Part shown: in pieces, positions 24,151-43,660 of the stretch | Layout of the letters: every line of letters begins with the position of its first letter | How positions within the stretch are numbered: position 1 is the first letter of the stretch | Origin: a virus | Lineage: Duplodnaviria > Heunggongvirae > Uroviricota > Caudoviricetes | Virus record (IMG/VR): IMGVR_UViG_638341196_000008 | DNA: 44,694 nt | Direction: 5' to 3' (one strand) | Made by a program: the position numbers and the translations under genes | Notes under the pieces: generated by a model | What the model saw: only the letters and a program-made list of their open reading frames with translations | Told to the model about the DNA's origin: nothing | Database searches by the model: none

Positions 24151-25902
24151 ATGATTCAGGACGCTTTTGTGCGCCAGCGTGCGCGGCAACTTTACTGGCA
24201 GGGTTATCCGCCCGCAGAGATATCACGTCTGATGGGAATAAACCCGAACACGATTTATGCGTGGAAAAAACGCGACCAGTGGGATGAAACACCACCCGTG
24301 CAGCGTGTTACGCAGTCCATCGATGCGCGCCTCATCCAGCTTACTGAAAAACAGAATAAAACAGGCGGTGACTTTAAGGAAATAGACCTGCTGACCCGGC
24401 AGCTTAAAAAGCTGCATGATGGCCAGCCGGATGTGATGGCCGCAGGAAAGAAAGGCCGGGCGAAAAAACTCAAAAATCATTTCACGCCGGAACAGATTGC
24501 CGCACTGCGGGAAAAAATCATCAGCAGGCTGGAGTGGCATCAGCGGGGCTGGTTTGACTCCCTGACACTTTGCAGGGAAGCCGGGATACGTAACAGGATG
24601 ATCCTGAAATCCCGACAGATTGGGGCGACCTGGTATTTTGCACAGGAAGCTCTGCTGACGGCGCTGCGTGACAATGTGGCGCAACCTTACCAGCGTAACC
24701 AGATTTTTTTGTCTGCGTCGCGTCGTCAGGCGTTCCAGTTTAAAAGCATTATTCAGAAGGCCGCGGCTGAAGTTGATGTGGAGCTGAAAGGGGGCGATAA
24801 AATCATCCTCTCCAACGGCGCAGAGCTGCATTTTCTCGGCACTTCTGCTGCGTCGGCACAGTCCTATACGGGCAATTTTTATTTTGATGAATTTTTCTGG
24901 GTCAGTCGCTTTGCTGAACTGCGCAAGGTGGCTGGCGCTATGGCAACCCTCAGCGGACTGCGGCGCACCTACTTCTCCACGCCATCCACCGAAACGCACG
25001 AGGCATACGCCTACTGGAACGACGACCGCTGGAACGAGAAAAAGGCCTCGCATAAACGCCAGCGTTTTTCTGTGGACTGGAAAACGCTGCATAACGGGCT
25101 TATCTGCCCTGACCGGACGTGGCGGCAAATTGTCACGCTGGAAGATGTGGTTAATCACGGCTGGAAACACACCGATATTGACGAAATCCGTGATGAAAAC
25201 ACCGAAGACGAGTTCCTCAATCTCTATATGTGTGAGTTTGTTCGCGAAGGGGAATCGGCATTTAACCTGAATATCCTGATTGGCTGCAGTGTTGACGGAT
25301 ACGACGACTGGAAAGACTGGAAACCTTTTGCTCCCCGCCCGATGGGGAATCGTCCGGTATGGATTGGGTATGACGCAAACGGCAGCAGTGGCAACGGCGA
25401 CAGCGGCGCTGTGTCCGTGGTGGTTCCTCCGGCTGTTCCTGGTGGCCGTTTTCGAACGGTGGAGACGCGACGCGTTCAGGGGCTGGAGTTTGAAGAACAG
25501 GCCAGAGTCATTGAAGAGTTCACGTATCGCTACAACGTGGAACACATCGGCATTGATGTGACGGGCGGGAACGGGGAGGCTGTTTATCAGATAGTGAAAC
25601 GGTTTTTCCCTGCTGCTATTCCGTACACCTTCACGCTGTCATCAAAACGGTCGCTGGTACTGAAAATGCTGCAAATAATGCGTGCCGGGCGGTGGGAATA
25701 CGATCGCGCCGAACGCGAGCTGGTCGCGGCCTTTAACGCCGTGCGTAAGGTGAAAACACCGGGCGGCTTTATCACTTACGAAACGGACCGCGCGAGGGGG
25801 ATCAGCCACGGCGACCTTGCGTGGGCAACCATGCTTGCTGTCATTAACGAACCGATTGGCGGCGAAGGAGAAAACGAGCGTTTCACGGTTATGGAGTTCT
25901 GA
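24151..25902 (+). CDS. P: Terminase large (ATPase) subunit gpP-like
   Basis: 583 aa; N-terminal HTH-like region and ATPase core; upstream of portal. Confidence 0.85.
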   Translation: MIQDAFVRQRARQLYWQGYPPAEISRLMGINPNTIYAWKKRDQWDETPPVQRVTQSIDARLIQLTEKQNKTGGDFKEIDLLTRQLKKLHDGQPDVMAAGKKGRAKKLKNHFTPEQIAALREKIISRLEWHQRGWFDSLTLCREAGIRNRMILKSRQIGATWYFAQEALLTALRDNVAQPYQRNQIFLSASRRQAFQFKSIIQKAAAEVDVELKGGDKIILSNGAELHFLGTSAASAQSYTGNFYFDEFFWVSRFAELRKVAGAMATLSGLRRTYFSTPSTETHEAYAYWNDDRWNEKKASHKRQRFSVDWKTLHNGLICPDRTWRQIVTLEDVVNHGWKHTDIDEIRDENTEDEFLNLYMCEFVREGESAFNLNILIGCSVDGYDDWKDWKPFAPRPMGNRPVWIGYDANGSSGNGDSGAVSVVVPPAVPGGRFRTVETRRVQGLEFEEQARVIEEFTYRYNVEHIGIDVTGGNGEAVYQIVKRFFPAAIPYTFTLSSKRSLVLKMLQIMRAGRWEYDRAERELVAAFNAVRKVKTPGGFITYETDRARGISHGDLAWATMLAVINEPIGGEGENERFTVMEF

Positions 25903-26945
25903 TGAGCAGAAAAAATAAAAAAGTGCGCATGAGTTCACGCATTGATCTCGCTGATGCGCTCAGGAAAGAATCATCGCTCAGTGCATTCACATTTGATGGT
26001 CCTTATCGCCTGACCGGGCATGACCTGCTGGACAATATGTACTGTGCTGATAACGGACGGTGGTATGAAACCCCGGTGGACTGGTACGGTCTGGCAAGAG
26101 CAGCCCGTCAAACGTCCTGGCATCAGTCTGCGCTTTACTTTAAGCGCAATGTATTACTCGGTTGCTACATCCCGCACCCGCTGCTTTCCCGGCAGGATTT
26201 CTCGGCGCTGGCGCTGGACTGGTTTGTGTTCGGTAACGCATTCCTTGAGCTTAGAAGCAATATGCTCGGCGAACCGCTTAAATTACGGCACGCACTGGCG
26301 AAATACATGCGACGCGGAAGCGATCTTGAATCATGGTGGTATGTGCAGGATGGCAAGGACGCGTTCCAGTTTCGCCCTGGCAAAGTGTGCCACCTGATGA
26401 ATCCGGATATTAACCAGGAAATCTACGGCATGCCGGAATATCTTGGCGCATTACTCTCGGCCAGCCTTTCTCATTCGGCGGACATGTTCAGAAAACTGTA
26501 CTACGACAACGGATCCCACGCCGGGTGCATCATCTACATCGGTGCAGCGCAGGTAAACCGCGAAAGCATGGACTCCCTGAAAGAAACGTTACAGGGCGCG
26601 CGTGGTGGTGCGTTTAAAAACGTGCTCATCCATGCGCCCAACGGGGGCAAAGAAGGTGTGCAAATTTTGCCGTTCCAGCAGATCACTGCAAAGGATGAGT
26701 TCATGAATGTTAAGGCGGCATCCCGTGATGATGTGCTGGCTGCGCACCGCGTTCCGCCGCAACTGATGGGGGCGATGCCGGGCGAAAAAAGTGCGTTTGG
26801 TGATGTGGAGAAGGCCGCGCGGGTTTACGCAATTAACGAGCTGATGCCCGTCATGGAGGCCATGAAGCACATCAATGACTGGCTTGGCGAAGAGGTGATC
26901 CGCTTTAACCCTTACGCACTGCTAGATACCCAGCCCACATCCTGA
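25902..26945 (+). CDS. Q: Portal protein gpQ-like
   Basis: 347 aa; start overlaps P stop; P2 Q is similar in length. Confidence 0.85.
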   Translation: MSRKNKKVRMSSRIDLADALRKESSLSAFTFDGPYRLTGHDLLDNMYCADNGRWYETPVDWYGLARAARQTSWHQSALYFKRNVLLGCYIPHPLLSRQDFSALALDWFVFGNAFLELRSNMLGEPLKLRHALAKYMRRGSDLESWWYVQDGKDAFQFRPGKVCHLMNPDINQEIYGMPEYLGALLSASLSHSADMFRKLYYDNGSHAGCIIYIGAAQVNRESMDSLKETLQGARGGAFKNVLIHAPNGGKEGVQILPFQQITAKDEFMNVKAASRDDVLAAHRVPPQLMGAMPGEKSAFGDVEKAARVYAINELMPVMEAMKHINDWLGEEVIRFNPYALLDTQPTS

Positions 26946-26987: not shown

Positions 26988-27368
26988 TATGCCCCGACTC
27001 TCCAGCTCCTGTATCAATCAGATAATTTCACGACGCTTTTCTGCTTATTGTCATCATCGGCGGTCAGACTCTTACGCAATCCCACCGCGTTGACTGCATG
27101 TTCTCGCCGCCTCAGTGCGATTTTGACGGCCTTATCTGCCACCCATCAAATCAAAAGCCCTCACGTCTTTTTCACGCTCAGCGTAAGAAATATAGCCATT
27201 CTGTTGTGTCTCTGCGACATCGTTCAGGGAATGCTATTTACCCCCTGAAACGCGGGCTGTTCCCCCGTCACCTGCGCGCAGAAAAAGCGCGTTTTTTTGT
27301 GCACGCACGGATCCTTGACGGATCCAGCCGCCACGCGGGCTGGAAGGGTAAAAAGTCGTTCAAAAAAA

Positions 27369-27395
27369 TTGTGCAAATTTGTGCACTATTGTGCA
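27369..27395. repeat. Three direct TTGTGCA repeats at 10-bp spacing (plus one more at 27297-27303)
   Basis: aaTTGTGCAaatTTGTGCActaTTGTGCAtt read directly; lies between the cos-proximal region and the cargo operon terminator. Confidence 0.6.
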
Positions 27396-27402
27396 TTAAA
27401 AT

Positions 27403-27425
27403 AAACGCCCTGGAAGAGGGCGTTT
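27403..27425 (-). terminator. Rho-independent terminator of the minus-strand cargo operon
   Basis: Stem aaacgccct/agggcgttt with 5-nt loop, followed on the minus strand by AUUUUAAU. Confidence 0.6.
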
Positions 27426-27435
27426 GGGCTCATTT

Positions 27436-27696
27436 CTATAGCTTTGATGCAGGCTGGGCTAGATGCAAGGGTTGGACATACCAGCCTTTTGATAACCAAC
27501 TCTCTGCAACCTCTTTACTCCTTGTTATTGCTGGTATTCCGATGCCGTTATTTACATGCATCCATGCTACTGGCTCTGCTTCCAGTGATACCAGTGCAAT
27601 TTCATAAGCACGGCGCTCAATATTGTCTCGAACGTCCAGGCTGCCTATGCGCTCTTTGATTTCTTTAATCAGTTCTTTGTCGGTGAAAGTTGTCAT
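27436..27696 (-). CDS. Hypothetical protein, 86 aa (last gene of cargo operon)
   Basis: ORF tightly packed in operon; no recognisable motif. Confidence 0.5.
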   Translation of the reverse strand: MTTFTDKELIKEIKERIGSLDVRDNIERRAYEIALVSLEAEPVAWMHVNNGIGIPAITRSKEVAESWLSKGWYVQPLHLAQPASKL

Positions 27697-27706
27697 GTGT
27701 TAGTCC

Positions 27707-27970
27707 TTATCCTGCTGTGCTTTCAACTGATGAGGGGAACAAAATCTTTTCATCAAACCCTGCATTCATATCATGAACAGCAACACACCAATCCATTGAC
27801 GAACGATTATCAAGAGCCTCCATGATTTCATCCATGTGGCGCAGGTCATACAGGTAAATGCTTTTATCGCCAATGGTGTAAAAACCAATTTTTTTCGGTG
27901 ATGGGCAGCGATCAAGAACGTCCTGTAATTCATTCAACCATGCCCGTTCTTTTTTTGTTAAAGTTGCCAT
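27707..27970 (-). CDS. Hypothetical protein, 87 aa
   Basis: ORF in operon; no recognisable motif. Confidence 0.5.
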   Translation of the reverse strand: MATLTKKERAWLNELQDVLDRCPSPKKIGFYTIGDKSIYLYDLRHMDEIMEALDNRSSMDWCVAVHDMNAGFDEKILFPSSVESTAG

Positions 27971-27971
27971 A

Positions 27972-28463
27972 TCACTCTCCTTTGATGCGAATGCCAGTGG
28001 TACTCATTCTCCTGATTTCCCAGAGCACACGAGGAACACCACCGTTTCCGACCGGATCGCGTTTACTCCGCAGGGCGACGCTTGATTCCGCCCAGCTTTT
28101 TCTTGGAGGAAGCTCTTTCACACGAACAAAACCAGCTGCGCGAAGAGATGCTCCTGATTCATCTGCCCGGGTGTACGTAATACAACGTTGATAACCCATA
28201 GCTTTTGCTGCCCGCCAGACAGCACCATAAAGCGCGCTGTTAGCGTTGCGTTCTCCTGTGGTACATGTGCGATTTACTTCAAGCGTTAATCCATCGTCCA
28301 AATGTCGTGCAACAGGTCGACCGGCTGTCGCCACACCTATCAATTCTCCGGCATCATTTCTCAGACCAATGCTGAATTTATGCCCCACCGGGGGTTTATT
28401 GTGTCGGTGATGTCTGGATATAAATGCCTTCGCAACACGAAGAGTAACCGGTGAAATCTGCAC
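27972..28463 (-). CDS. Hypothetical protein, weak GNAT-acyltransferase-like C-terminal motif (uncertain)
   Basis: Start set at GTG 7 nt after SD AAGGAG; ...GYQRCITYTRADESGASLRAAGF resembles the acetyl-CoA binding motif region. Confidence 0.4.
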   Translation of the reverse strand: MQISPVTLRVAKAFISRHHRHNKPPVGHKFSIGLRNDAGELIGVATAGRPVARHLDDGLTLEVNRTCTTGERNANSALYGAVWRAAKAMGYQRCITYTRADESGASLRAAGFVRVKELPPRKSWAESSVALRSKRDPVGNGGVPRVLWEIRRMSTTGIRIKGE

Positions 28464-28465
28464 TC

Positions 28466-28780
28466 TCACTCTCCTTTGATACCAATGTTTACAGTCTGGC
28501 AAGCTTCTCTGAGCACCCAGTCAACAGCGTCTTTCCATGCTCCGGTTTCAGTTGGCGGATTCTCACGCTTTACCAGTTCATAGAAACGTACTGCTCTAAC
28601 CAGTCCATCTGACGGTTTTGCCTGTAGTGCAGCCTGAGCTATACGGTATGCCTGGAGCATACGGGCGTCGTTGATATCCATTCCGAACGGAATTTCTGAT
28701 GATCGTGATTCTGCATCTTCAAGCCTGGCAATTTCTTTACGTAAAAAGTATTTCAACTCTTGTTTTTGTTTTCTGTTCAT
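28466..28780 (-). CDS. Hypothetical protein, 104 aa
   Basis: ATGA overlap with upstream gene; no recognisable motif. Confidence 0.5.
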
Positions 28781-29109
28781 GTGTTTTTTCCCTTTTTGTC
28801 TGCCACTTCTCTCCTGATAATTTCATTGCACAAATCCACGCACTCATTGCAGATGTAAACAGACGGTCCAGCAATCACCTTTGTGACTTCGTACTGGGAT
28901 TTATTGCAGAAGCTGCAATAAATCGTTTCCTCGCCTGAAGCCCATGTTTTGCTGGTTTTGCCAGACATCAGTTGTTTGAGGTCTTTTTCACGACGAAGAA
29001 CTATCTGGCCACATTCAGCTATTTTTTGGATGTTGACATTTTCTTCTTTCGCCAGCGCTTCCATCCGCTCAATCAGTCGCTGCGCTTTTTCTCTGTCAAT
29101 GTGTTGCAT
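28777..29109 (-). CDS. Small protein with C-terminal ClpX-type C4 zinc-binding domain and N-terminal coiled-coil region
   Basis: [39 protein letters not shown] is near-identical in pattern to the ClpX N-terminal zinc-binding domain (LYCSFCGKSQ...VYICDECVDLCNDII); SD AAGGGGG. Confidence 0.7.
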
Positions 29110-29172
29110 TGTGTCCCCCTTGTTTATGTTCCCGGGTTAAAGTCATCAGGGCGGATGCGCCCTGATGTTGTG

Positions 29173-29484
29173 TTATTCGGGAAATAACGCCCGGATATTT
29201 CCGGCCATCTGACTGGTTATCTGTGCGGTTGATACTGGCTGTGATGCGGGGCGTTCTGTCCTGGTTTGTGTCACTGATAACGCCTCATCATCAGCCCATG
29301 CAGCCAGTCGGTAAGCCTCTGCCGGATTCATTTTCAGAAGTGCCAGCCCGGCCAGAAAAGCCACGCGTTGGCCGCTTTTGCGGGCTTCTGGTGTAAGGCT
29401 GTCCAGCCAGGCGCATGCTTCGCCTTCGTTCTTGACGGCGGCGGGCTTCAGATAGAAACTTATTCGTCTGGTTGGTGTCGTCAT
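29173..29484 (-). CDS. parR: ParR-like partition adaptor/repressor
   Basis: About 103 aa starting MTTPTRRISFYLKP; resembles R1 ParR (RRTIAFKL..., ...LFPKE); SD AAGGAG; immediately downstream of parM. Confidence 0.6.
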   Translation of the reverse strand: MTTPTRRISFYLKPAAVKNEGEACAWLDSLTPEARKSGQRVAFLAGLALLKMNPAEAYRLAAWADDEALSVTQTRTERPASQPVSTAQITSQMAGNIRALFPE

Positions 29485-29488
29485 TGAT

Positions 29489-30448
29489 TTACTCCTTGTC
29501 CATTGCGTACAGCCCATTAACCAGAGCAAACTGTGGCACCCCGTCCGCGATGAAAGTCGCATTAACTCCGCAGGCTTCGCGGATAGCGGGTGCCACAATC
29601 TCCGCTCCTCCACCTACAACCATCACCCGCCCGTAACCCGAAAAACCCGCCAGCGCGCGGATCACGCGTTGTTTCAGTGTTTCTTCCTTTTCACGAATAA
29701 CCGCCATCAGGCTGGCGTAATGTGCGTCATTGTGGATGTGCTGGCGCAGCCAGGCTTCATCATGGCGATGTTCGATAATGGTATTGGCGATGTGGTGACT
29801 GGTACGCATACCGTTAGTGGCCATCACCGACAGTACGGCATCGGCCATCAGGGAAACGCCTACGTGTGGATCGCAAAATACCTGGCTGATACCTGCCAAC
29901 TGCCCCTGAACCTTTGCCACATCCAGCGTGGTTCCGCCCAAATCCACAATCAGCAGGGATTCAAACGGACTCATGTCAGCCAGTGTTTTAAAGCCAGTTG
30001 GAATGGATTCAGGCATAACCCGTACGTTACGGATAGTGAATGCTTCGCCGTTCTGGTACTCCACCGGGCGCATAACGTTCGCTTTTTTGCGGTTGATGTT
30101 GGCCATGTCCGGCTGTGCGTTTGTGTCGAAATACTCGCTCAGTGGCAGGGTGACAACCACATCCACCTCCTGTGGCGTGATGCCTGATTTGACCAGCGCG
30201 TGATGAATGGCAATGACATTCACATCGCTGTACTGGTATTGCGTGTCGGTCGTCTGGACAAAGCGATCGCTGACCGGATCAAAACCATAGCGCACGCCAT
30301 CAAGCATGTAGTTCGCGGGCTGCGTGCCACCGAACGGCGCAGACCATTCCGACTTGAAGCTGTTCGGGCTGATGGCGTTGCGGCGTTCGCCGTTCTCAGT
30401 CCATGCCAGCTTGATGTTGGTGGAGCCGTCGTCGATACAAATTTTCAT
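29489..30448 (-). CDS. parM: ParM/StbA-like actin-family partition ATPase
   Basis: 319 aa; strong similarity to R1 ParM throughout (IDDGSTNIKL, YSDVNVIAIHHAL, MPESIP, DLGGTTLD, GGGAE). Confidence 0.8.
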   Translation of the reverse strand: MKICIDDGSTNIKLAWTENGERRNAISPNSFKSEWSAPFGGTQPANYMLDGVRYGFDPVSDRFVQTTDTQYQYSDVNVIAIHHALVKSGITPQEVDVVVTLPLSEYFDTNAQPDMANINRKKANVMRPVEYQNGEAFTIRNVRVMPESIPTGFKTLADMSPFESLLIVDLGGTTLDVAKVQGQLAGISQVFCDPHVGVSLMADAVLSVMATNGMRTSHHIANTIIEHRHDEAWLRQHIHNDAHYASLMAVIREKEETLKQRVIRALAGFSGYGRVMVVGGGAEIVAPAIREACGVNATFIADGVPQFALVNGLYAMDKE

Positions 30449-30591
30449 GTCGCTTTTCCTTATGTTGATTAATTAATCGTTTACGGGATTCTGAAATCCC
30501 GTTTTTTCCGTAAGCGCCCCATCAGCGACGTCTTGTGAAAATTGTCCTGTCTGGCAACAATCGCGCCCATCTATATTGATGGACACGAACG

Positions 30592-31077
30592 ATGAATTCC
30601 CAGACAACAAAAGATATTCCCTGCTTCCGTTCTTATTTGCCTGATGCCCTGCGTTTAAGATTTGAAGATAAACTGACCATCCGGGCCATCGCTCAGCGTC
30701 TGGGTCTCAGTCATTCCACAATACATACGCTTTTTCAGCGATTTCTTGCATCCGGTATCGCATGGCCATTGCCCGATTCAGTTTCATTCGCTCAACTTGA
30801 CGCCATCCTTTATGCCAACAGAAAGAAGGAATTAACAGAGCCTCAAATCAGAGAAGGCTCATGGCGAAAAGAACGGCGAACCAGCTATAGCCGTGAATTT
30901 AAGGTCCGTCTGGCTAAGCAGGCGTTACAGCCTGGGGCTGTTGTTGCCCGGATCGCCAGAGAACACGATATCAATGATAACCTGCTGTTTAAATGGAAAA
31001 GCCAGTACGAGGACGGCTTACTGAGCGATGATGACATACAGGCATACAGGAATGCATGCCTGTCCCGGTGGCACTGA
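30592..31077 (+). CDS. IS66-family accessory HTH protein (transposase_8-like)
   Basis: 161 aa with ...YSREFKVRLAKQALQPGAVVARIAREHDINDNLLFKWKSQY HTH region. Confidence 0.65.
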   Translation: MNSQTTKDIPCFRSYLPDALRLRFEDKLTIRAIAQRLGLSHSTIHTLFQRFLASGIAWPLPDSVSFAQLDAILYANRKKELTEPQIREGSWRKERRTSYSREFKVRLAKQALQPGAVVARIAREHDINDNLLFKWKSQYEDGLLSDDDIQAYRNACLSRWH

Positions 31078-31274
31078 CTGATACGCCGGAGCCGACCAGA
31101 CCAGTTACAAATCCCTTCTGGCGTAACAAGCATGATGAGCGCCCTGAGGGGGCTCCCGGAAACGTCCCACGGTGCGAGCTGCATCTTAAATCAGGTGTGG
31201 TAAAACTGTTTGACCCTCTCACTCCGGAACTGTTACGGGCGCTAATCCGCGAAATGAAAGGGGGTATCCGATGA
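31056..31274 (+). CDS. IS66-family small ORF (TnpA-like), ATGA-overlapping tnpB
   Basis: 72-aa ORF whose stop overlaps the TnpB start. Confidence 0.45.
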   Translation: MPVPVALTDTPEPTRPVTNPFWRNKHDERPEGAPGNVPRCELHLKSGVVKLFDPLTPELLRALIREMKGGIR

Positions 31275-31618
31275 TAACGCTGCCGACCGGTACCAGAATC
31301 TGGATCATCGCTGGCATCACAGATATGCGTTGTGGCTTCAATGGCCTGGCTTCGAAGGTGCAGAACACGCTGAAAGATGACCCGTTCTCCGGGCATATCT
31401 TCGTCTTCCGGGGCCGCAGTGGCAAAATGGTGAAAATACTGTGGGCCGATCGTGACGGGTTATGCCTGTTCGCCAAACGCCTGGAACGGGGCCGCTTCGT
31501 CTGGCCGGTGACCCGGGAAGGGAAAGTGCACCTGACGCCAGCTCAGTTATCCATGCTACTGGAGGGGATCGCGTGGCAACATCCCACACGGACAGAACGG
31601 CCTGGCATCCGGATATAA
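31271..31618 (+). CDS. tnpB: IS66-family TnpB
   Basis: 115 aa, MITLPTGTRIWIIAGITDMR... typical of IS66 Orf2. Confidence 0.8.
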   Translation: MITLPTGTRIWIIAGITDMRCGFNGLASKVQNTLKDDPFSGHIFVFRGRSGKMVKILWADRDGLCLFAKRLERGRFVWPVTREGKVHLTPAQLSMLLEGIAWQHPTRTERPGIRI

Positions 31619-31637
31619 CCCGTGATAAAACAAGGGA

Positions 31638-33195
31638 ATGAACAATGAACTCCCCGATGATATTGAGCTGCTTAAAGCCATGTTGCGTAAGCAACAGAGT
31701 CGGCTTCGACAGTATGCCTGTCAGGTCGCGGGCTATGAGCAGGAAATTGAACGGCTGAAAGCGCAACTCGACAGGTTGCGTCGTATGTTGTTCGGCCAGA
31801 GTTCAGAGAAAAAGCGTCATAAGCTTGAAAATCAGATCCGACAGGCAGAAAAACGACTGTCGGAACTGGAAAACCGGCTGAACACAGCCAGAAATCTTCT
31901 GGAAGATGCATCGTCAGTCACAGATTCACCTGACACCAGTCCCCCGTCAGAAAACCCGATCGCCAGTAAGCCTGAATCCCCGGGAGACACATCGCCTTCT
32001 GCCTGCTGAAACCAGTTGCCCGGCCTGTGGAGGTGTTCTGAAAGAAATGGGGGAAACAATCTCAGAGCAACTGGATATCATTAATACCGCCTTTAAAGTT
32101 ATCGAAACCATACGTCCCAAACTGGCCTGTAGCCGGTGTGATGTCATCGTTCAGGCACCACTTCCCCCTAAACCGATCGAACGCGGTTATGCCAGTGCAG
32201 GGTTACTTGCACGGATCCTGGTCAGCAAATATATGGAACATATCCCTTTATATCGCCAGTCAGAAATATACGCGCGACAGGGCGTGGAGCTGAGCCGTAA
32301 TACCATGGTGCGCTGGGTATCAGAAATGGCAGACAAACTCCGTCCTCTGTATATAGCGCTGAATGACTATGTTCTGGAGGCAGGAAAGGTGCACGCAGAT
32401 GACACTCCGGTGAAAGTACTGGCCCCGGGGAACGGAAAGACGAAAACGGGTCGTCTGTGGGTATACGTCAGGGATGATCGTAATGCGGGTTCATCCCTGC
32501 CGGCAGCCGTCTGGTTCGCGTATTCGGCAGATCGCAAAGGAGAACATCCGCAGCTCCACCTGGCAAAGTATCAGGGCGTACTGCAGGCTGATGCCTATGC
32601 AGGTTATAACGTACTGTACGAAACGGGCCGGGTGAAGGAAGCCGGGTGCCTGGCCCACGCCCGCCGAAAAATCCATGACGAGGATGTGCGCCGTCCGACA
32701 GAAATGACTCAGGAAGCGCTCAGACGGATAGCAGAGTTATACGACATAGAAGCGGAGATACGTGGCAGTCCGGCAGAGGAACGGCTTGCAGTCAGAAAAG
32801 CCAGAAGCGTCCAGTTGATGCAGTCGTTGTACGACTGGATACAGTTGCAGAGGAAAACGCTGTCGAAACATGCGGAGATGGCGAAGGCGTTCGACTATAT
32901 CCTGAATCACTGGAATGCGCTGAACGAGTTCTGTCGTGACGGCTGGGTGGAAATAGACAACAACATCGGTGAAAACGCGTTACGATCGGTGGCGGTTGGA
33001 AGAAAAAATTATCTCTTTTTCGGCTCAGACAAGGGAGGAGAAAGTGCGGCGATCATCTACAGTCTGCTGGTCACCTGCAAACAGAACGAAGTGGAGCCGG
33101 AGGACTGGTTGCGCGAAGTGATCGAGAAGCTCAATGACTGGCCGTCGAACCAAGTGCATGAACTGCTGCCCTGGAACTTCTCGTCTGTAAAATAA
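31638..33195 (+). pseudogene. tnpC: IS66-family transposase TnpC, split by a frame change between 31906 and 32009
   Basis: N-terminal leucine-zipper ORF (31638..32009) and main ORF (31906..33195, containing CPACGG zinc finger) are in different frames; same in copy B. Confidence 0.7.
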
Positions 33196-33227
33196 TCCTT
33201 ACGCTACGTACTTCTCGGGGCGCTTAC

Positions 33228-38646: not shown

Positions 38647-40938
38647 ATGACGGCAGAGTACATCAGGGACTGGCAACAACCGCGCCACGCAGTGGGGCGT
38701 GAAGGAACGGGGATCCCCGCTCCTGAATCCGTGCTTTCCTCCTGGCTGGATGCCTACCGGGTAGAGAACGAGCGCCGCCAGGAAATGGCTAATGCGGCGT
38801 TCTCCGCCACGCCGCTGGGCAACCTGATTAATAAAAGCCTGGACGCACAGGAAAAACAGGACAAAACCATCACACTGGCAGGAGACGCCAGAAAACAGGC
38901 ACGCGGCGCGGTGGATGAAGCCATGGCCTCGCTGCACCTGCTGCCGTCCTATCTGCGCGATCCGCTTATTCGCCACCTCTCCTTCCTGCGCAAAAAACAG
39001 GAAGCCGATCGCCGGAAAGGCAAAAAGAGCTGGCAGGCGGAACGCTATGCACGCGGAACCCTGCGCAAAATATTCGAACGTCTGGATCGCACTGACGGAC
39101 ACTGGCTGACACCGGGTTATCGCTCCCTTGCCGGACGCGAACGCCTGGACGATTTGCTTTACCTGCCGCAGCTCAACAAACACCAGATACAGACGCTGGC
39201 CACCATGACGGCGGCGATGTTCAGCAGCACCTTCGAAAAACTCTGCGATGGCTTTGGCGCGACCGATGGCGAACTGACCATGGATGTAACGCTGAAGGCG
39301 TATCAGATGCTGGCCCGCATGGCGTTACACCTGCACGCCATGCCTCCACATTATGACGCACTGACAACAGACAAAGACCGGAGGAACGAACCGGACACGG
39401 AGCTGCTGCCGGGCGCAATCCTTCGCCTGACCTGTGCGGAATGGTGGAAACGCAAACTGTGGCTGTTACGTTGCGAGTGGAGAGAAGAACAACTCCGCGC
39501 CGCCTGTCTGGTTTCCAGAAAAACATCACCCTATCTGAGCCAGGACGCGTTAAGCGAGTTTCGCGCACAGCGCGAGAAAACACGCGATTTCCTGAAAAGT
39601 TTCATGCTGGAAAACGAAGACGGGTTCACGATTGATCTCGAGACAGTGTATTACGCGGGAGTAAGTAACCCGGTTCACCGTAAGGCAGAAATGATGGCCA
39701 CCATGAAGGGGCTGGAACTTCTGGCCGAAGCCCGTGGCGACAAAGCGGTGTTTCTGACTGTCACCTGCCCGTCAAAATACCACGCCACAACAGAGAACAG
39801 TCATCCGAATCCCAAATGGAACGGGGCCACCATGCGCGACTCCAGCGATTACCTGGTTAACACGTTTTTTGCAGCGGTCCGCAAGAAACTGAACCGCGAC
39901 GGCCTGCGCTGGTATGGCATCCGCACGGTGGAGCCTCACCATGACGGCACCGTGCACTGGCATATGATGGTCTTTGCTCATCCGGAAGAAATCGACACCA
40001 TTGTGTCCCACACCCGCGATATTGCCATTCAGGAAGATCGTCACGAGCTGGGTGATGATATTACCCCACGCTTTAAGGCGGAGTACGTCGACGGCTCAAA
40101 AGGCACGCCAACCAGCTACATCGCCACCTACATCGGAAAGAACCTGGACAGCCGCGCCGTGGATGGCATCGACCCGAAAACGGGCAAGCCACGCGTTGAC
40201 CACGAAACAGGTAAATCAATGGCCGAGAGCGTGGAGCGCGCCATCGGCTGGGCGCGCCTTCACCGGGTCCGCCAGTTCCAGTTCTTTGGCATCCCCTCCC
40301 GTCAGGTGTGGCGTGAACTCCGCCGCCTTGCCAGCCAGATAGCACGCAACCCAGAAGGCCCGCAACGGCTGAAGGATGACGCAATGGATGCGGTTCTTGC
40401 TGCCGCTGATGCCGGGTGTTTTGCCACCTACATTGAAAAACAGGGTGGCGTACTTGTTCCGCGCAAGGACTACCTGATTCGCACAGCCTACGACCTCGCA
40501 GATGAGCTGAACGATTACGGCGAACAGAGTGTACAGATTTACGGGATCTGGTCGCCATTCATCGGGGAATCCTCCCGTGTGTGCACGCATCCGGATAACT
40601 GGAAGCTGGTAAGACGTAAACCGGAAGCGGAGGACAGCACCCGCGAAAATGGTTTTGACCTTCAGGGCGGCCCTGCCGCCCCTTGGACTCGTGGCAATAA
40701 CTGTCCCCGTGTACAGGAAACGGACAACAACGGGACAGAACAGCCGAAAGAACGGCCAGCACCGTGGCCGCAGCTCCCTGACGGCGTTGAAGTGAACGAA
40801 TGGATGCGCTCACTGAAACGGCACGAACGCCGGGCGCTGATGCGTTCGCTTCGTGACAAACAGGCAAAAAACAGCAGTGATGAAATGCAGAGCTGGACAC
40901 AGAGCCGCAAACAGCAGCGGCCTTTGCCTGATAAGTAA
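38647..40938 (+). CDS. A: Rolling-circle replication initiator gpA-like; last codon and stop supplied by the IS66 end
   Basis: 763 aa; HUH-type motif HWHMMVF and active-site tyrosines YIATYIGK; stop TAA lies inside GTAAGCG of the IS terminus. Confidence 0.8.
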   Translation: MTAEYIRDWQQPRHAVGREGTGIPAPESVLSSWLDAYRVENERRQEMANAAFSATPLGNLINKSLDAQEKQDKTITLAGDARKQARGAVDEAMASLHLLPSYLRDPLIRHLSFLRKKQEADRRKGKKSWQAERYARGTLRKIFERLDRTDGHWLTPGYRSLAGRERLDDLLYLPQLNKHQIQTLATMTAAMFSSTFEKLCDGFGATDGELTMDVTLKAYQMLARMALHLHAMPPHYDALTTDKDRRNEPDTELLPGAILRLTCAEWWKRKLWLLRCEWREEQLRAACLVSRKTSPYLSQDALSEFRAQREKTRDFLKSFMLENEDGFTIDLETVYYAGVSNPVHRKAEMMATMKGLELLAEARGDKAVFLTVTCPSKYHATTENSHPNPKWNGATMRDSSDYLVNTFFAAVRKKLNRDGLRWYGIRTVEPHHDGTVHWHMMVFAHPEEIDTIVSHTRDIAIQEDRHELGDDITPRFKAEYVDGSKGTPTSYIATYIGKNLDSRAVDGIDPKTGKPRVDHETGKSMAESVERAIGWARLHRVRQFQFFGIPSRQVWRELRRLASQIARNPEGPQRLKDDAMDAVLAAADAGCFATYIEKQGGVLVPRKDYLIRTAYDLADELNDYGEQSVQIYGIWSPFIGESSRVCTHPDNWKLVRRKPEAEDSTRENGFDLQGGPAAPWTRGNNCPRVQETDNNGTEQPKERPAPWPQLPDGVEVNEWMRSLKRHERRALMRSLRDKQAKNSSDEMQSWTQSRKQQRPLPDK

Positions 40939-43652
40939 GCGCCCCGAGAAGTACGTAGCGTAAGGATTATTTTACAGACGAGAAGTTCCAGGGCAGCAGT
41001 TCATGCACTTGGTTCGACGGCCAGTCATTGAGCTTCTCGATCACTTCGCGCAACCAGTCCTCCGGCTCCACTTCGTTCTGTTTGCAGGTGACCAGCAGAC
41101 TGTAGATGATCGCCGCACTTTCTCCTCCCTTGTCTGAGCCGAAAAAGAGATAATTTTTTCTTCCAACCGCCACCGATCGTAACGCGTTTTCACCGATGTT
41201 GTTGTCTATTTCCACCCAGCCGTCACGACAGAACTCGTTCAGCGCATTCCAGTGATTCAGGATATAGTCGAACGCCTTCGCCATCTCCGCATGTTTCGAC
41301 AGCGTTTTCCTCTGCAACTGTATCCAGTCGTACAACGACTGCATCAACTGGACGCTTCTGGCTTTTCTGACTGCAAGCCGTTCCTCTGCCGGACTGCCAC
41401 GTATCTCCGCTTCTATGTCGTATAACTCTGCTATCCGTCTGAGCGCTTCCTGAGTCATTTCTGTCGGACGGCGCACATCCTCGTCATGGATTTTTCGGCG
41501 GGCGTGGGCCAGGCACCCGGCTTCCTTCACCCGGCCCGTTTCGTACAGTACGTTATAACCTGCATAGGCATCAGCCTGCAGTACGCCCTGATACTTTGCC
41601 AGGTGGAGCTGCGGATGTTCTCCTTTGCGATCTGCCGAATACGCGAACCAGACGGCTGCCGGCAGGGATGAACCCGCATTACGATCATCCCTGACGTATA
41701 CCCACAGACGACCCGTTTTCGTCTTTCCGTTCCCCGGGGCCAGTACTTTCACCGGAGTGTCATCTGCGTGCACCTTTCCTGCCTCCAGAACATAGTCATT
41801 CAGCGCTATATACAGAGGACGGAGTTTGTCTGCCATTTCTGATACCCAGCGCACCATGGTATTACGGCTCAGCTCCACGCCCTGTCGCGCGTATATTTCT
41901 GACTGGCGATATAAAGGGATATGTTCCATATATTTGCTGACCAGGATCCGTGCAAGTAACCCTGCACTGGCATAACCGCGTTCGATCGGTTTAGGGGGAA
42001 GTGGTGCCTGAACGATGACATCACACCGGCTACAGGCCAGTTTGGGACGTATGGTTTCGATAACTTTAAAGGCGGTATTAATGATATCCAGTTGCTCTGA
42101 GATTGTTTCCCCCATTTCTTTCAGAACACCTCCACAGGCCGGGCAACTGGTTTCAGCAGGCAGAAGGCGATGTGTCTCCCGGGGATTCAGGCTTACTGGC
42201 GATCGGGTTTTCTGACGGGGGACTGGTGTCAGGTGAATCTGTGACTGACGATGCATCTTCCAGAAGATTTCTGGCTGTGTTCAGCCGGTTTTCCAGTTCC
42301 GACAGTCGTTTTTCTGCCTGTCGGATCTGATTTTCAAGCTTATGACGCTTTTTCTCTGAACTCTGGCCGAACAACATACGACGCAACCTGTCGAGTTGCG
42401 CTTTCAGCCGTTCAATTTCCTGCTCATAGCCCGCGACCTGACAGGCATACTGTCGAAGCCGACTCTGTTGCTTACGCAACATGGCTTTAAGCAGCTCAAT
42501 ATCATCGGGGAGTTCATTGTTCATTCCCTTGTTTTATCACGGGTTATATCCGGATGCCAGGCCGTTCTGTCCGTGTGGGATGTTGCCACGCGATCCCCTC
42601 CAGTAGCATGGATAACTGAGCTGGCGTCAGGTGCACTTTCCCTTCCCGGGTCACCGGCCAGACGAAGCGGCCCCGTTCCAGGCGTTTGGCGAACAGGCAT
42701 AACCCGTCACGATCGGCCCACAGTATTTTCACCATTTTGCCACTGCGGCCCCGGAAGACGAAGATATGCCCGGAGAACGGGTCATCTTTCAGCGTGTTCT
42801 GCACCTTCGAAGCCAGGCCATTGAAGCCACAACGCATATCTGTGATGCCAGCGATGATCCAGATTCTGGTACCGGTCGGCAGCGTTATCATCGGATACCC
42901 CCTTTCATTTCGCGGATTAGCGCCCGTAACAGTTCCGGAGTGAGAGGGTCAAACAGTTTTACCACACCTGATTTAAGATGCAGCTCGCACCGTGGGACGT
43001 TTCCGGGAGCCCCCTCAGGGCGCTCATCATGCTTGTTACGCCAGAAGGGATTTGTAACTGGTCTGGTCGGCTCCGGCGTATCAGTCAGTGCCACCGGGAC
43101 AGGCATGCATTCCTGTATGCCTGTATGTCATCATCGCTCAGTAAGCCGTCCTCGTACTGGCTTTTCCATTTAAACAGCAGGTTATCATTGATATCGTGTT
43201 CTCTGGCGATCCGGGCAACAACAGCCCCAGGCTGTAACGCCTGCTTAGCCAGACGGACCTTAAATTCACGGCTATAGCTGGTTCGCCGTTCTTTTCGCCA
43301 TGAGCCTTCTCTGATTTGAGGCTCTGTTAATTCCTTCTTTCTGTTGGCATAAAGGATGGCGTCAAGTTGAGCGAATGAAACTGAATCGGGCAATGGCCAT
43401 GCGATACCGGATGCAAGAAATCGCTGAAAAAGCGTATGTATTGTGGAATGACTGAGACCCAGACGCTGAGCGATGGCCCGGATGGTCAGTTTATCTTCAA
43501 ATCTTAAACGCAGGGCATCAGGCAAATAAGAACGGAAGCAGGGAATATCTTTTGTTGTCTGGGAATTCATCGTTCGTGTCCATCAATATAGATGGGCGCG
43601 ATTGTTGCCAGACAGGACAATTTTCACAAGACGTCGCTGATGGGGCGCTTAC
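40935..43652 (-). mobile_element. IS66-family insertion sequence, copy B, identical to copy A and inverted
   Basis: All ORFs mirror copy A with a constant coordinate sum (74162); ORFs 43085..43570, 42888..43106, 42544..42891, 42153..42524 and 40967..42256. Confidence 0.85.
40967..42524 (-). pseudogene. tnpC: IS66-family TnpC of copy B (same frame change)
   Basis: Mirror of 31638..33195. Confidence 0.7.
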
Positions 43653-43660
43653 GGAGAAAT
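43653..43660. repeat. 8-bp target-site duplication half (GGAGAAAT) at copy B outer end
   Basis: Reverse complement of 33228..33235. Confidence 0.7.

Follow-up and report, generated by a model that had tools for sequence, protein, structure and literature searches.

Heptamer repeats downstream of the portal gene

Four copies of the heptamer TTGTGCA, three of them in exact 10-bp phase, lie beyond the portal gene of the prophage described here, and the question raised by this locus is what such an array is for and which protein reads it. Phased repeats of this kind usually bind a protein, and the initial annotation of this DNA offered two candidate functions for them, a displaced parC-like centromere for the partition protein ParR and a packaging or replication accessory site. 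The window, by which we mean the whole stretch of 44,694 nucleotides that was analyzed (IMG/VR record IMGVR_UViG_638341196_000008), is a P88-like prophage (Xuanwuvirus, Peduoviridae, P2-family), and its intergenic region beyond the portal gene matches those of P88-like phages at 90–95%.

Direct sequence search placed TTGTGCA on the plus strand at 27297–27303, 27369–27375, 27379–27385 and 27389–27395, which confirmed all four of the positions that had been reported. The start-to-start spacing within the distal trio is exactly 10 bp and the lone copy precedes the first of these by 72 bp. The heptamer showed no overall enrichment in the window, where seven matches were found on both strands versus 11.0 ± 3.4 in dinucleotide shuffles. 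Its clustering was non-random, as none of 1000 mononucleotide-shuffled versions of the window had three copies within 30 bp or four copies within 100 bp.

The genes around the repeats form a standard P2-type packaging and head module, gpL/M/N/O/P/Q. These are gpL (20642–21145), a gpM-like small terminase subunit (PF05944; 21238–22038, minus strand), the capsid and scaffold members of the head module, gpN and gpO, a gpP-like large terminase with an N-terminal helix-turn-helix (PF06056/HTH_23; 24151–25902, plus strand) that is the presumed nuclease/ATPase, and a gpQ-like portal (25902–26945, plus strand). In P2-like genomes cos sits just beyond Q and is followed by an accessory/defence hotspot (PMC9122126), and the repeats are therefore in the region where cos is expected. 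They had been placed between the Q/cos side and the terminator of the cargo operon, and this was correct, as they lie between the portal gene and an intrinsic terminator of the minus-strand cargo operon (27425–27403). The conserved block to which the repeats belong begins about 290–300 bp past the portal stop, the variable cargo comes after it and the terminator is outside it. This is the position of a P2-family cos site, between portal Q and the right-end accessory region, in an element that also has the gpM and gpP genes.

The cargo operon adjoining cos (27436–29109, minus strand) consists of two small ORFs without a Pfam match (27436–27696 and 27707–27970), an ORF with a weak match to the Mom family under the Pfam cut-off (27972–28502), an ORF with no match (28466–28780) and a gene for a ClpX-type C4 zinc finger protein (28777–29109). 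Elsewhere in the window there are two inverted copies of an IS66-family element (30503–33227 and 40935–43659), each of 2725 bp and 99.96% identical to one another, with the transposase (zf-IS66/DDE_Tnp_IS66) of the first at 31906–33195. The C-terminal piece of a P88-type replication gene was found at 40555–40932 on the plus strand, beside the second IS66 copy and not upstream of parM. Based on this displaced position, the replication gene seems to be split and the segment flanked by the two IS66 elements to be inverted, which probably leaves the prophage defective.

Homology to the cos sites of P2, 186 and P4

The circular junctions of P2, 186, PSP3, Wphi and P4 were rebuilt in the orientation of the window. 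All five had the same order of elements, namely GCGCGC, the 19-nt cohesive end, a short hairpin, TTTT(A/G)ATGCA, a spacer of ~68 nt and three phased ATGCA units, and the window aligned to this layout without large gaps. Positions 27251–27303 aligned with the P2/186/P4 core from GCGCGC to TTTTAATGCA, in which the 19-nt end is GGCGAGGCGGGGAAAGCAC. Intermediate forms of the core present in other contigs, e.g., GCTTGCTCCCCCGCCTCGCC, link the P2-type with the window-type sequence.

The whole conserved cos block of the window, a predicted packaging signal, spans ~160 bp on the plus strand (27236–27395). Its most conserved part is a GC-rich core, CGCGGGCTGTTCCCCCGTCACCTGCGCGC (27251–27279), which aligns with GCGCGCA-GTGCTTTCCCCGCCTCGCC-CGCCCGC of P2/186/P4. 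Within the core is the predicted cohesive-end 19-mer, GGGCTGTTCCCCCGTCACC (27255–27273, referred to here as site A), 13 of whose 19 positions agree with the P2 cos end in reverse complement. The core is followed by a short GC hairpin and then a T-run (27274–27292), a terminator-like arrangement that is present in the window and in P2/186/P4 and is not universal among relatives. The proximal unit, P (27294–27303), is made of the last five T's of the T-run and then GTGCA. It contains the heptamer at 27297–27303, which is about 24 bp from the core, and it is the homologue of TTTTAATGCA, the sequence that closes the 55-bp core common to P2 and P4.

Beyond P there is a spacer (27304–27368) that is poorly conserved in sequence and fixed in length, such that the TGCA of P and that of the first distal unit are 72 bp apart. 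The spacer contains a GC-rich inverted repeat, 27323–27329/27338–27344 (TCCAGCC...GGCTGGA), and ends in an A-run (27362–27368). The three distal units are D1 (27369–27375), D2 (27379–27385), which overlaps the palindrome GTGCAC, and D3 (27389–27395), with whose final A conservation ends ahead of the variable cargo. Among 29 non-redundant spacers, 17 had their best inverted repeat centred at the equivalent place (spacer index 28–32.5), with stems that differed in sequence, and P2 and Wphi have no such repeat; this repeat might serve as another site for a protein or have a structural role.

Two reports quote a “55-bp cos region” for P2/P4 (PMC3931495, PMC5247547). By our own count this region extends from GCGCGC to the first ATGCA, the homologue of the heptamer at 27297, and so takes in the proximal unit and leaves out the distal triplet. 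Among P2-type phages, BLAST similarity stops past the proximal unit, and the distal units of these phages are short (ATGCA) and sometimes degenerate, as in the third unit of Wphi. The window therefore resembles the cos sites of P2, 186, PSP3 and P4 in genomic location and in the succession of core, T-run plus TGCA, spacer and three phased TGCA units with the 72-bp proximal-to-distal distance, whereas it differs in its repeat unit, which is (A)ATGCA in those phages and TTGTGCA here. It also differs in the spacing of the distal units, strictly 10/10 in the window versus 10/12 in P2, 10/13 in P4 and 10/9 in 186 and PSP3, and in the extra ~300 bp between the portal gene and the core.

The cos sites of P2, 186, PSP3 and P4, with 19-nt 5′ cohesive ends, are reportedly the subject of a primary deletion study by Ziermann and Calendar, said to be in Gene 96:9 of 1990. 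In the literature accessible to us, which excluded that study, we found no explicit description of the bipartite layout of one plus three units with an invariant 72-bp spacing. The papers on P4-cosmid engineering gave no minimal-cos anatomy, and none of the papers found by literature search mentioned P88_4B11, the P88-type phage whose record is considered below.

Small ORFs run over the block (e.g., 27268–27396 on the minus strand, and the “hypothetical proteins” of P88 records). These were not treated as genes, since the motif peaks and a spacer of fixed length and free sequence are unlike coding DNA.

Could the array instead be a transcription signal for the cargo, either a promoter or operator or a minus-strand back-up terminator formed by GTGCA...TGCAC and a T-run? 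In P2 the distal units adjoin the old promoter and transcript starts are annotated about 30 bp beyond them, and a terminator scan of the window did return a weak minus-strand hairpin at 27386–27371 followed by T's. However, the stem of this hairpin is only 5 bp and it arises because TGCA is self-complementary, a scan for promoters detected nothing resembling a sigma-70 site in the block, and the strong terminator at 27425–27403 already closes the cargo operon. In addition, the array is conserved whatever cargo follows it and in either orientation of that cargo, no Rfam family matched the block, and its single-strand folding was unremarkable (z = −2.1). We consider a transcriptional function to be very unlikely.

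Conservation and fixed geometry of the repeats

A motif search in relatives found the repeat block across related phages, contigs and satellites. Eighty viral contigs were anchored on their portal genes (portal identity 57–100%), from which 69 unique blocks were aligned and 53 non-redundant blocks were profiled. Information content in the 53 blocks peaked at 27251–27279, at 27294–27303 and at 27364–27395, the last of these comprising the A-run and the distal heptamers; it was low in the spacer and fell to background right after 27395. The TGCA of the proximal unit was invariant in this set.

The heptamers themselves were scored in 133 distinct blocks of the TTGTGCA class, in which the distal spacing is 10/10. 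TTGTGCA was present at the proximal position in 93% of these blocks and at D1, exactly +72 from P, in 89%. The units at D2 (+82) and D3 (+92) were perfect in 84% and only 67% of the blocks, respectively, with TCGTGCA and TTGTGCG as variants of D3. The idea in the initial annotation that the phased repeats are a site for a protein fits this strong, position-specific conservation.

The distance of 72 bp between the TGCA of P and that of D1 was found in the window, P2, 186, P4, PSP3 and 53 of 66 scored blocks, and was 71 bp in six blocks and in Wphi. It has been kept across spacers of unrelated sequence, such as those of the window and P2. A protein assembly in contact with both ends of the spacer would be expected to fix its length and leave its sequence free. 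The 10-bp phasing would keep the distal units nearly on one face of the helix, and 72 bp would correspond to about 6.9 turns.

Of 5426 complete E. coli genomes, 1142 contained the block, and homology ended at 27395 in the majority of the matches sampled from these 1142. As both these matches and the conservation profile stop at this position, the boundary of the hotspot is the last base of the third heptamer. A boundary of this kind could suggest that the repeats are a landmark for recombination, at which defence and cargo genes are exchanged, and that they have no role in packaging. Homology between prophages does break off exactly with the last base of D3, a second, degenerate cos-like copy is present in one contig (L059), and Rousset et al. 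have speculated that exchange at this hotspot is promoted by cos ends (PMC9122126). Yet a sharp boundary is expected at the edge of any essential cis-acting site that is beside a variable region, the P4-like satellites have their hotspot on the other side of cos and conserve the distal units nonetheless, and no recombinase is linked to the array. We therefore regard a purely recombinational landmark as highly improbable.

The second copy in contig L059 consists of a core, a T-run plus GTGCA and decayed distal units. It is located about 250 bp past the intact block, about 505–640 nt after the portal stop, and looks like the trace of a past recombination at the cos-adjacent hotspot.

Satellites without a terminase carry the same block

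Satellites of the P4 type, which were collected via Psu and belong to six genera (Psu identity 60–99%), have retained the core and proximal unit together with a distal triplet that hardly varies. Their block is of the ATGCA type and is beside psu. The spacers of these elements drift, and directly to the left of GCGCGC the DNA is unrelated.

A block of the TTGTGCA type was found in an island of ~12 kb in E. coli JML285, located between hpt and gcd (NZ_AP024114, about 3987241–3999113). The genes annotated in the island encode two integrases, a toprim/alpha-like primase, Icd-like and ogr/Delta-like proteins and a “P2 family major capsid protein”, and its annotation lists no terminase, portal or tail genes. 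The block of the island has an identical core, perfect copies of P and D1–D3 with the spacing 72/10/10, and a diverged spacer. Similarity between the island and the window is confined to about 27236–27395, and the island shares exactly this interval. The functional unit is thereby delimited, and the heptamers travel with the packaging signal and not with the neighboring genes. Based on its gene content and its block, the island may represent a capsid-encoding lineage of P4-like satellites that depends on helpers of the P88/Novemvirus type.

The cos signal is common to helper phages and to satellites that have no terminase of their own. The suggestion of a packaging accessory site made in the initial annotation is supported by these findings, in that the repeats are an integral, conserved piece of the P2-family cos block and are carried by satellites, which borrow nothing but the packaging signal from their helpers.

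The array is independent of ParM and ParR

The second suggestion was that the repeats are a parC-like centromere for the StbB-like ParR of the prophage that has been displaced from parMR. The window does encode ParM (29489–30448, minus strand) and a Plasmid_stab_B ParR-like protein (29173–29613, minus strand), type II centromeres are typically phased direct repeats, and a search for iterons upstream of parM and throughout 28700–30900 found none. The resemblance to parC of the R1 ParMRC system is in the phased short direct repeats and in the presence of a ParM/ParR pair. In contrast to R1 parC, however, the array of the window is not beside parMR, from which it is separated by 1.8 kb and five ORFs counted from parR, and it is tied to the cos core at the fixed distance of 72 bp.

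The distribution of the array is also unlike that of the partition genes. Matches to ParM were confined to Xuanwuvirus records and phage D6, and among the contigs ParM/ParR were present only in those that are P88-like. A tblastn search with ParM found nothing in the complete phages phiT5282H and 500465-2, both of which carry the array, and diverged contigs with the array had no ParM/ParR within 2.5 kb of cos. The JML285 satellite carries the array and no partition gene is listed in its annotation, and homologous arrays of the ATGCA type are present in P2, 186, PSP3 and P4. As ParM/ParR are limited to P88-like phages, and the repeats are also in elements without them, the idea of a centromere is unsupported and is largely refuted by these distributions. 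We give a displaced parC only a minimal chance of being correct.

As a separate observation, this P2-like prophage, an integrating element, carries ParM/ParR of the StbA/StbB type, and only an 8-bp inverted repeat (30483–30502) precedes its parM.

Comparison with phage lambda and phiCTX

In phage lambda, cosB adjoins cosN and contains the gpNu1-binding repeats R3, R2 and R1 plus the IHF site I1. The arrangement in the window is analogous to the extent that short repeats, one of them proximal to the nick and others distal, are on one side of the nick, where they would presumably serve terminase as an anchor and source of specificity. There is no sequence similarity to lambda cosB, the repeats of the window are on the side of cos that is away from the terminase genes, and the PF05944 small terminase is unrelated in sequence to gpNu1. 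The IHF consensus (WATCAANNNNTTR) is absent from the block, and no homology to the IHF site or R sites of lambda was found in it. The resemblance to lambda cosB is consequently functional only, as there is no IHF match and the small subunit is of PF05944 and not of the gpNu1 family.

A distant member of the Peduoviridae with an experimentally defined cos is phiCTX, in which short repeats with a TGCR core (CTGCR) are found on the corresponding side of the 21-nt cos. One of the CTGCR units follows a T-run beside the cohesive end, and others are at distances of about 9, 55, 71 and 81 bp from it. The GenBank record of phiCTX (NC_003278) annotates a “region 3 containing R4, R5, R6 repeats” across cos, as well as IHF sites in the att-cos region. 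The differences from the window are in the sequence of the unit, in the geometry (about 55 bp to the first distal unit, followed by intervals of 16 and 10), in the 21-nt cohesive end and in the position of cos beside attP/int, not beside a cargo hotspot. Based on the CTGCR units and the R4–R6 annotation, the repeat theme reaches family members in Pseudomonas with a different geometry. Repeats near cos had thus already been annotated in phiCTX, and TTGTGCA is a new sequence class of the P2-family cos site.

These comparisons also bear on whether the protein that binds the heptamers is not terminase but a nucleoid or bending protein of the host that would shape the cos DNA for terminase, as IHF does at I1 of lambda. 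A host factor would be consistent with the TGCA core common to phage lineages whose terminases have diverged, with the A-run directly before D1 and with the IHF sites in the phiCTX record. Nevertheless, the block lacks the canonical IHF consensus, and the flanks of the unit vary by lineage (TTGTGCA, ATGCA, CTGCR), with the satellites matching one of the helper classes. A reader encoded by the phage fits these lineage-specific flanks and the matching of satellites to a helper class better. We also know of no E. coli factor matched to direct repeats of TTGTGCA, which counts against a host protein, and we consider this explanation unlikely, although less so than those discussed above.

A proposed role in terminase recognition

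Together, the homology, the pattern of conservation, the fixed geometry, the presence of the block in satellites and the independence of the array from ParMR lead us to propose that the heptamers are cis-acting parts of the cos site of a P88-type prophage and are bound by an oligomer of terminase, in the manner of lambda cosB. Terminase binding is a prediction from sequence, and the explanation as a whole is one that we consider to be probably correct. In this proposal, a terminase oligomer would bind the four direct repeats through its small subunit, gpM, or, with lower likelihood, through the helix-turn-helix at the N-terminus of gpP, a choice that is a guess between the two. Sequence searches with gpM and gpP found no solved homologue. 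The 72-bp spacer would act as a ruler or form a loop, the DNA being looped or wrapped such that the distal array and the proximal unit are held together. The nuclease would thereby be placed on the GC-rich core and the DNA marked for packaging. Should the analogy with lambda be valid, the end that carries the repeats, on the right of the P2 map, would be packaged first.

A broader reading, which we put forward tentatively and regard as doubtful in its full extent, is that the one-plus-three arrangement with its invariant 72-bp ruler is a family-wide terminase-recognition module of P2-like phages, equivalent to cosB. Its sequence classes, ATGCA (P2/186/P4), TTGTGCA (P88/Novemvirus-type) and CTGCR (phiCTX), might then define specificity groups of helpers and satellites, and the TTGTGCA class might be exploited by uncharacterised satellites of ~12 kb that encode their own capsid, such as the JML285 island.

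These findings delimit to the base the predicted packaging signal of a prophage type that is present in about one-fifth of complete E. coli genomes. They also indicate that the edge of the defence-gene hotspot in P2-like phages is nothing other than the final base of the cos signal. If the class of heptamer does set recognition by terminase, it would predict which helpers mobilise which satellites, including their defence cargo, and a portable packaging tag of ~160 bp would be available for P88-type transducing particles. Such a tag would stand alongside the P2/P4 cosmid systems that are already in use for antimicrobial delivery.

Position of the nick and the ends of deposited genomes

Cleavage within the core, at site A, is what homology to P2 would predict. 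An alternative candidate for the physical end of the DNA, site B (27332–27350, plus strand), is in the spacer and is suggested by two sequence records. In LR595891, the linear record of P88_4B11, the cut is at 27350|27351 and no bases are duplicated, and the IMG contig L032 stops at the position corresponding to 27333, exactly the centre of the GC-rich inverted repeat of the spacer. These two ends are independent of one another, are 17 nt apart and are in the spacer rather than in the P2-homologous 19-mer. They could mark a genuine end of the DNA in P88-type phages or be an artefact of assembly caused by the inverted repeat.

The P2-type records from the depositors of LR595891 start exactly at the canonical cos. 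One of them, LR595869 (P2_2H4), has remnants of the Nextera adapter/mosaic end at both of its ends (CGTGGGCTCGGAGATGTGTATAAGAGACAG... and ...CTGTCTCTTA), and its break is inside the cos 19-mer. As the P2-type records begin at cos and Nextera remnants flank the break, the ends of these depositors' records appear to reflect physical ends.

A scan of metagenomes found two contigs with informative ends; both are complete, begin at or beside the core (positions 27260 and 27279) and continue across site B without a break. Among the deposited linear records of Klebsiella-type relatives, none was found that ends in the block. Site B is also disfavoured by its poor conservation and by its divergence in the JML285 satellite, in which the core is identical. 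Although the exact positions of the nicks are predicted from homology, we favour the core over site B as the probable place of cleavage. Whether the nick is at site A or at site B, the heptamers are within about 125 bp of it.
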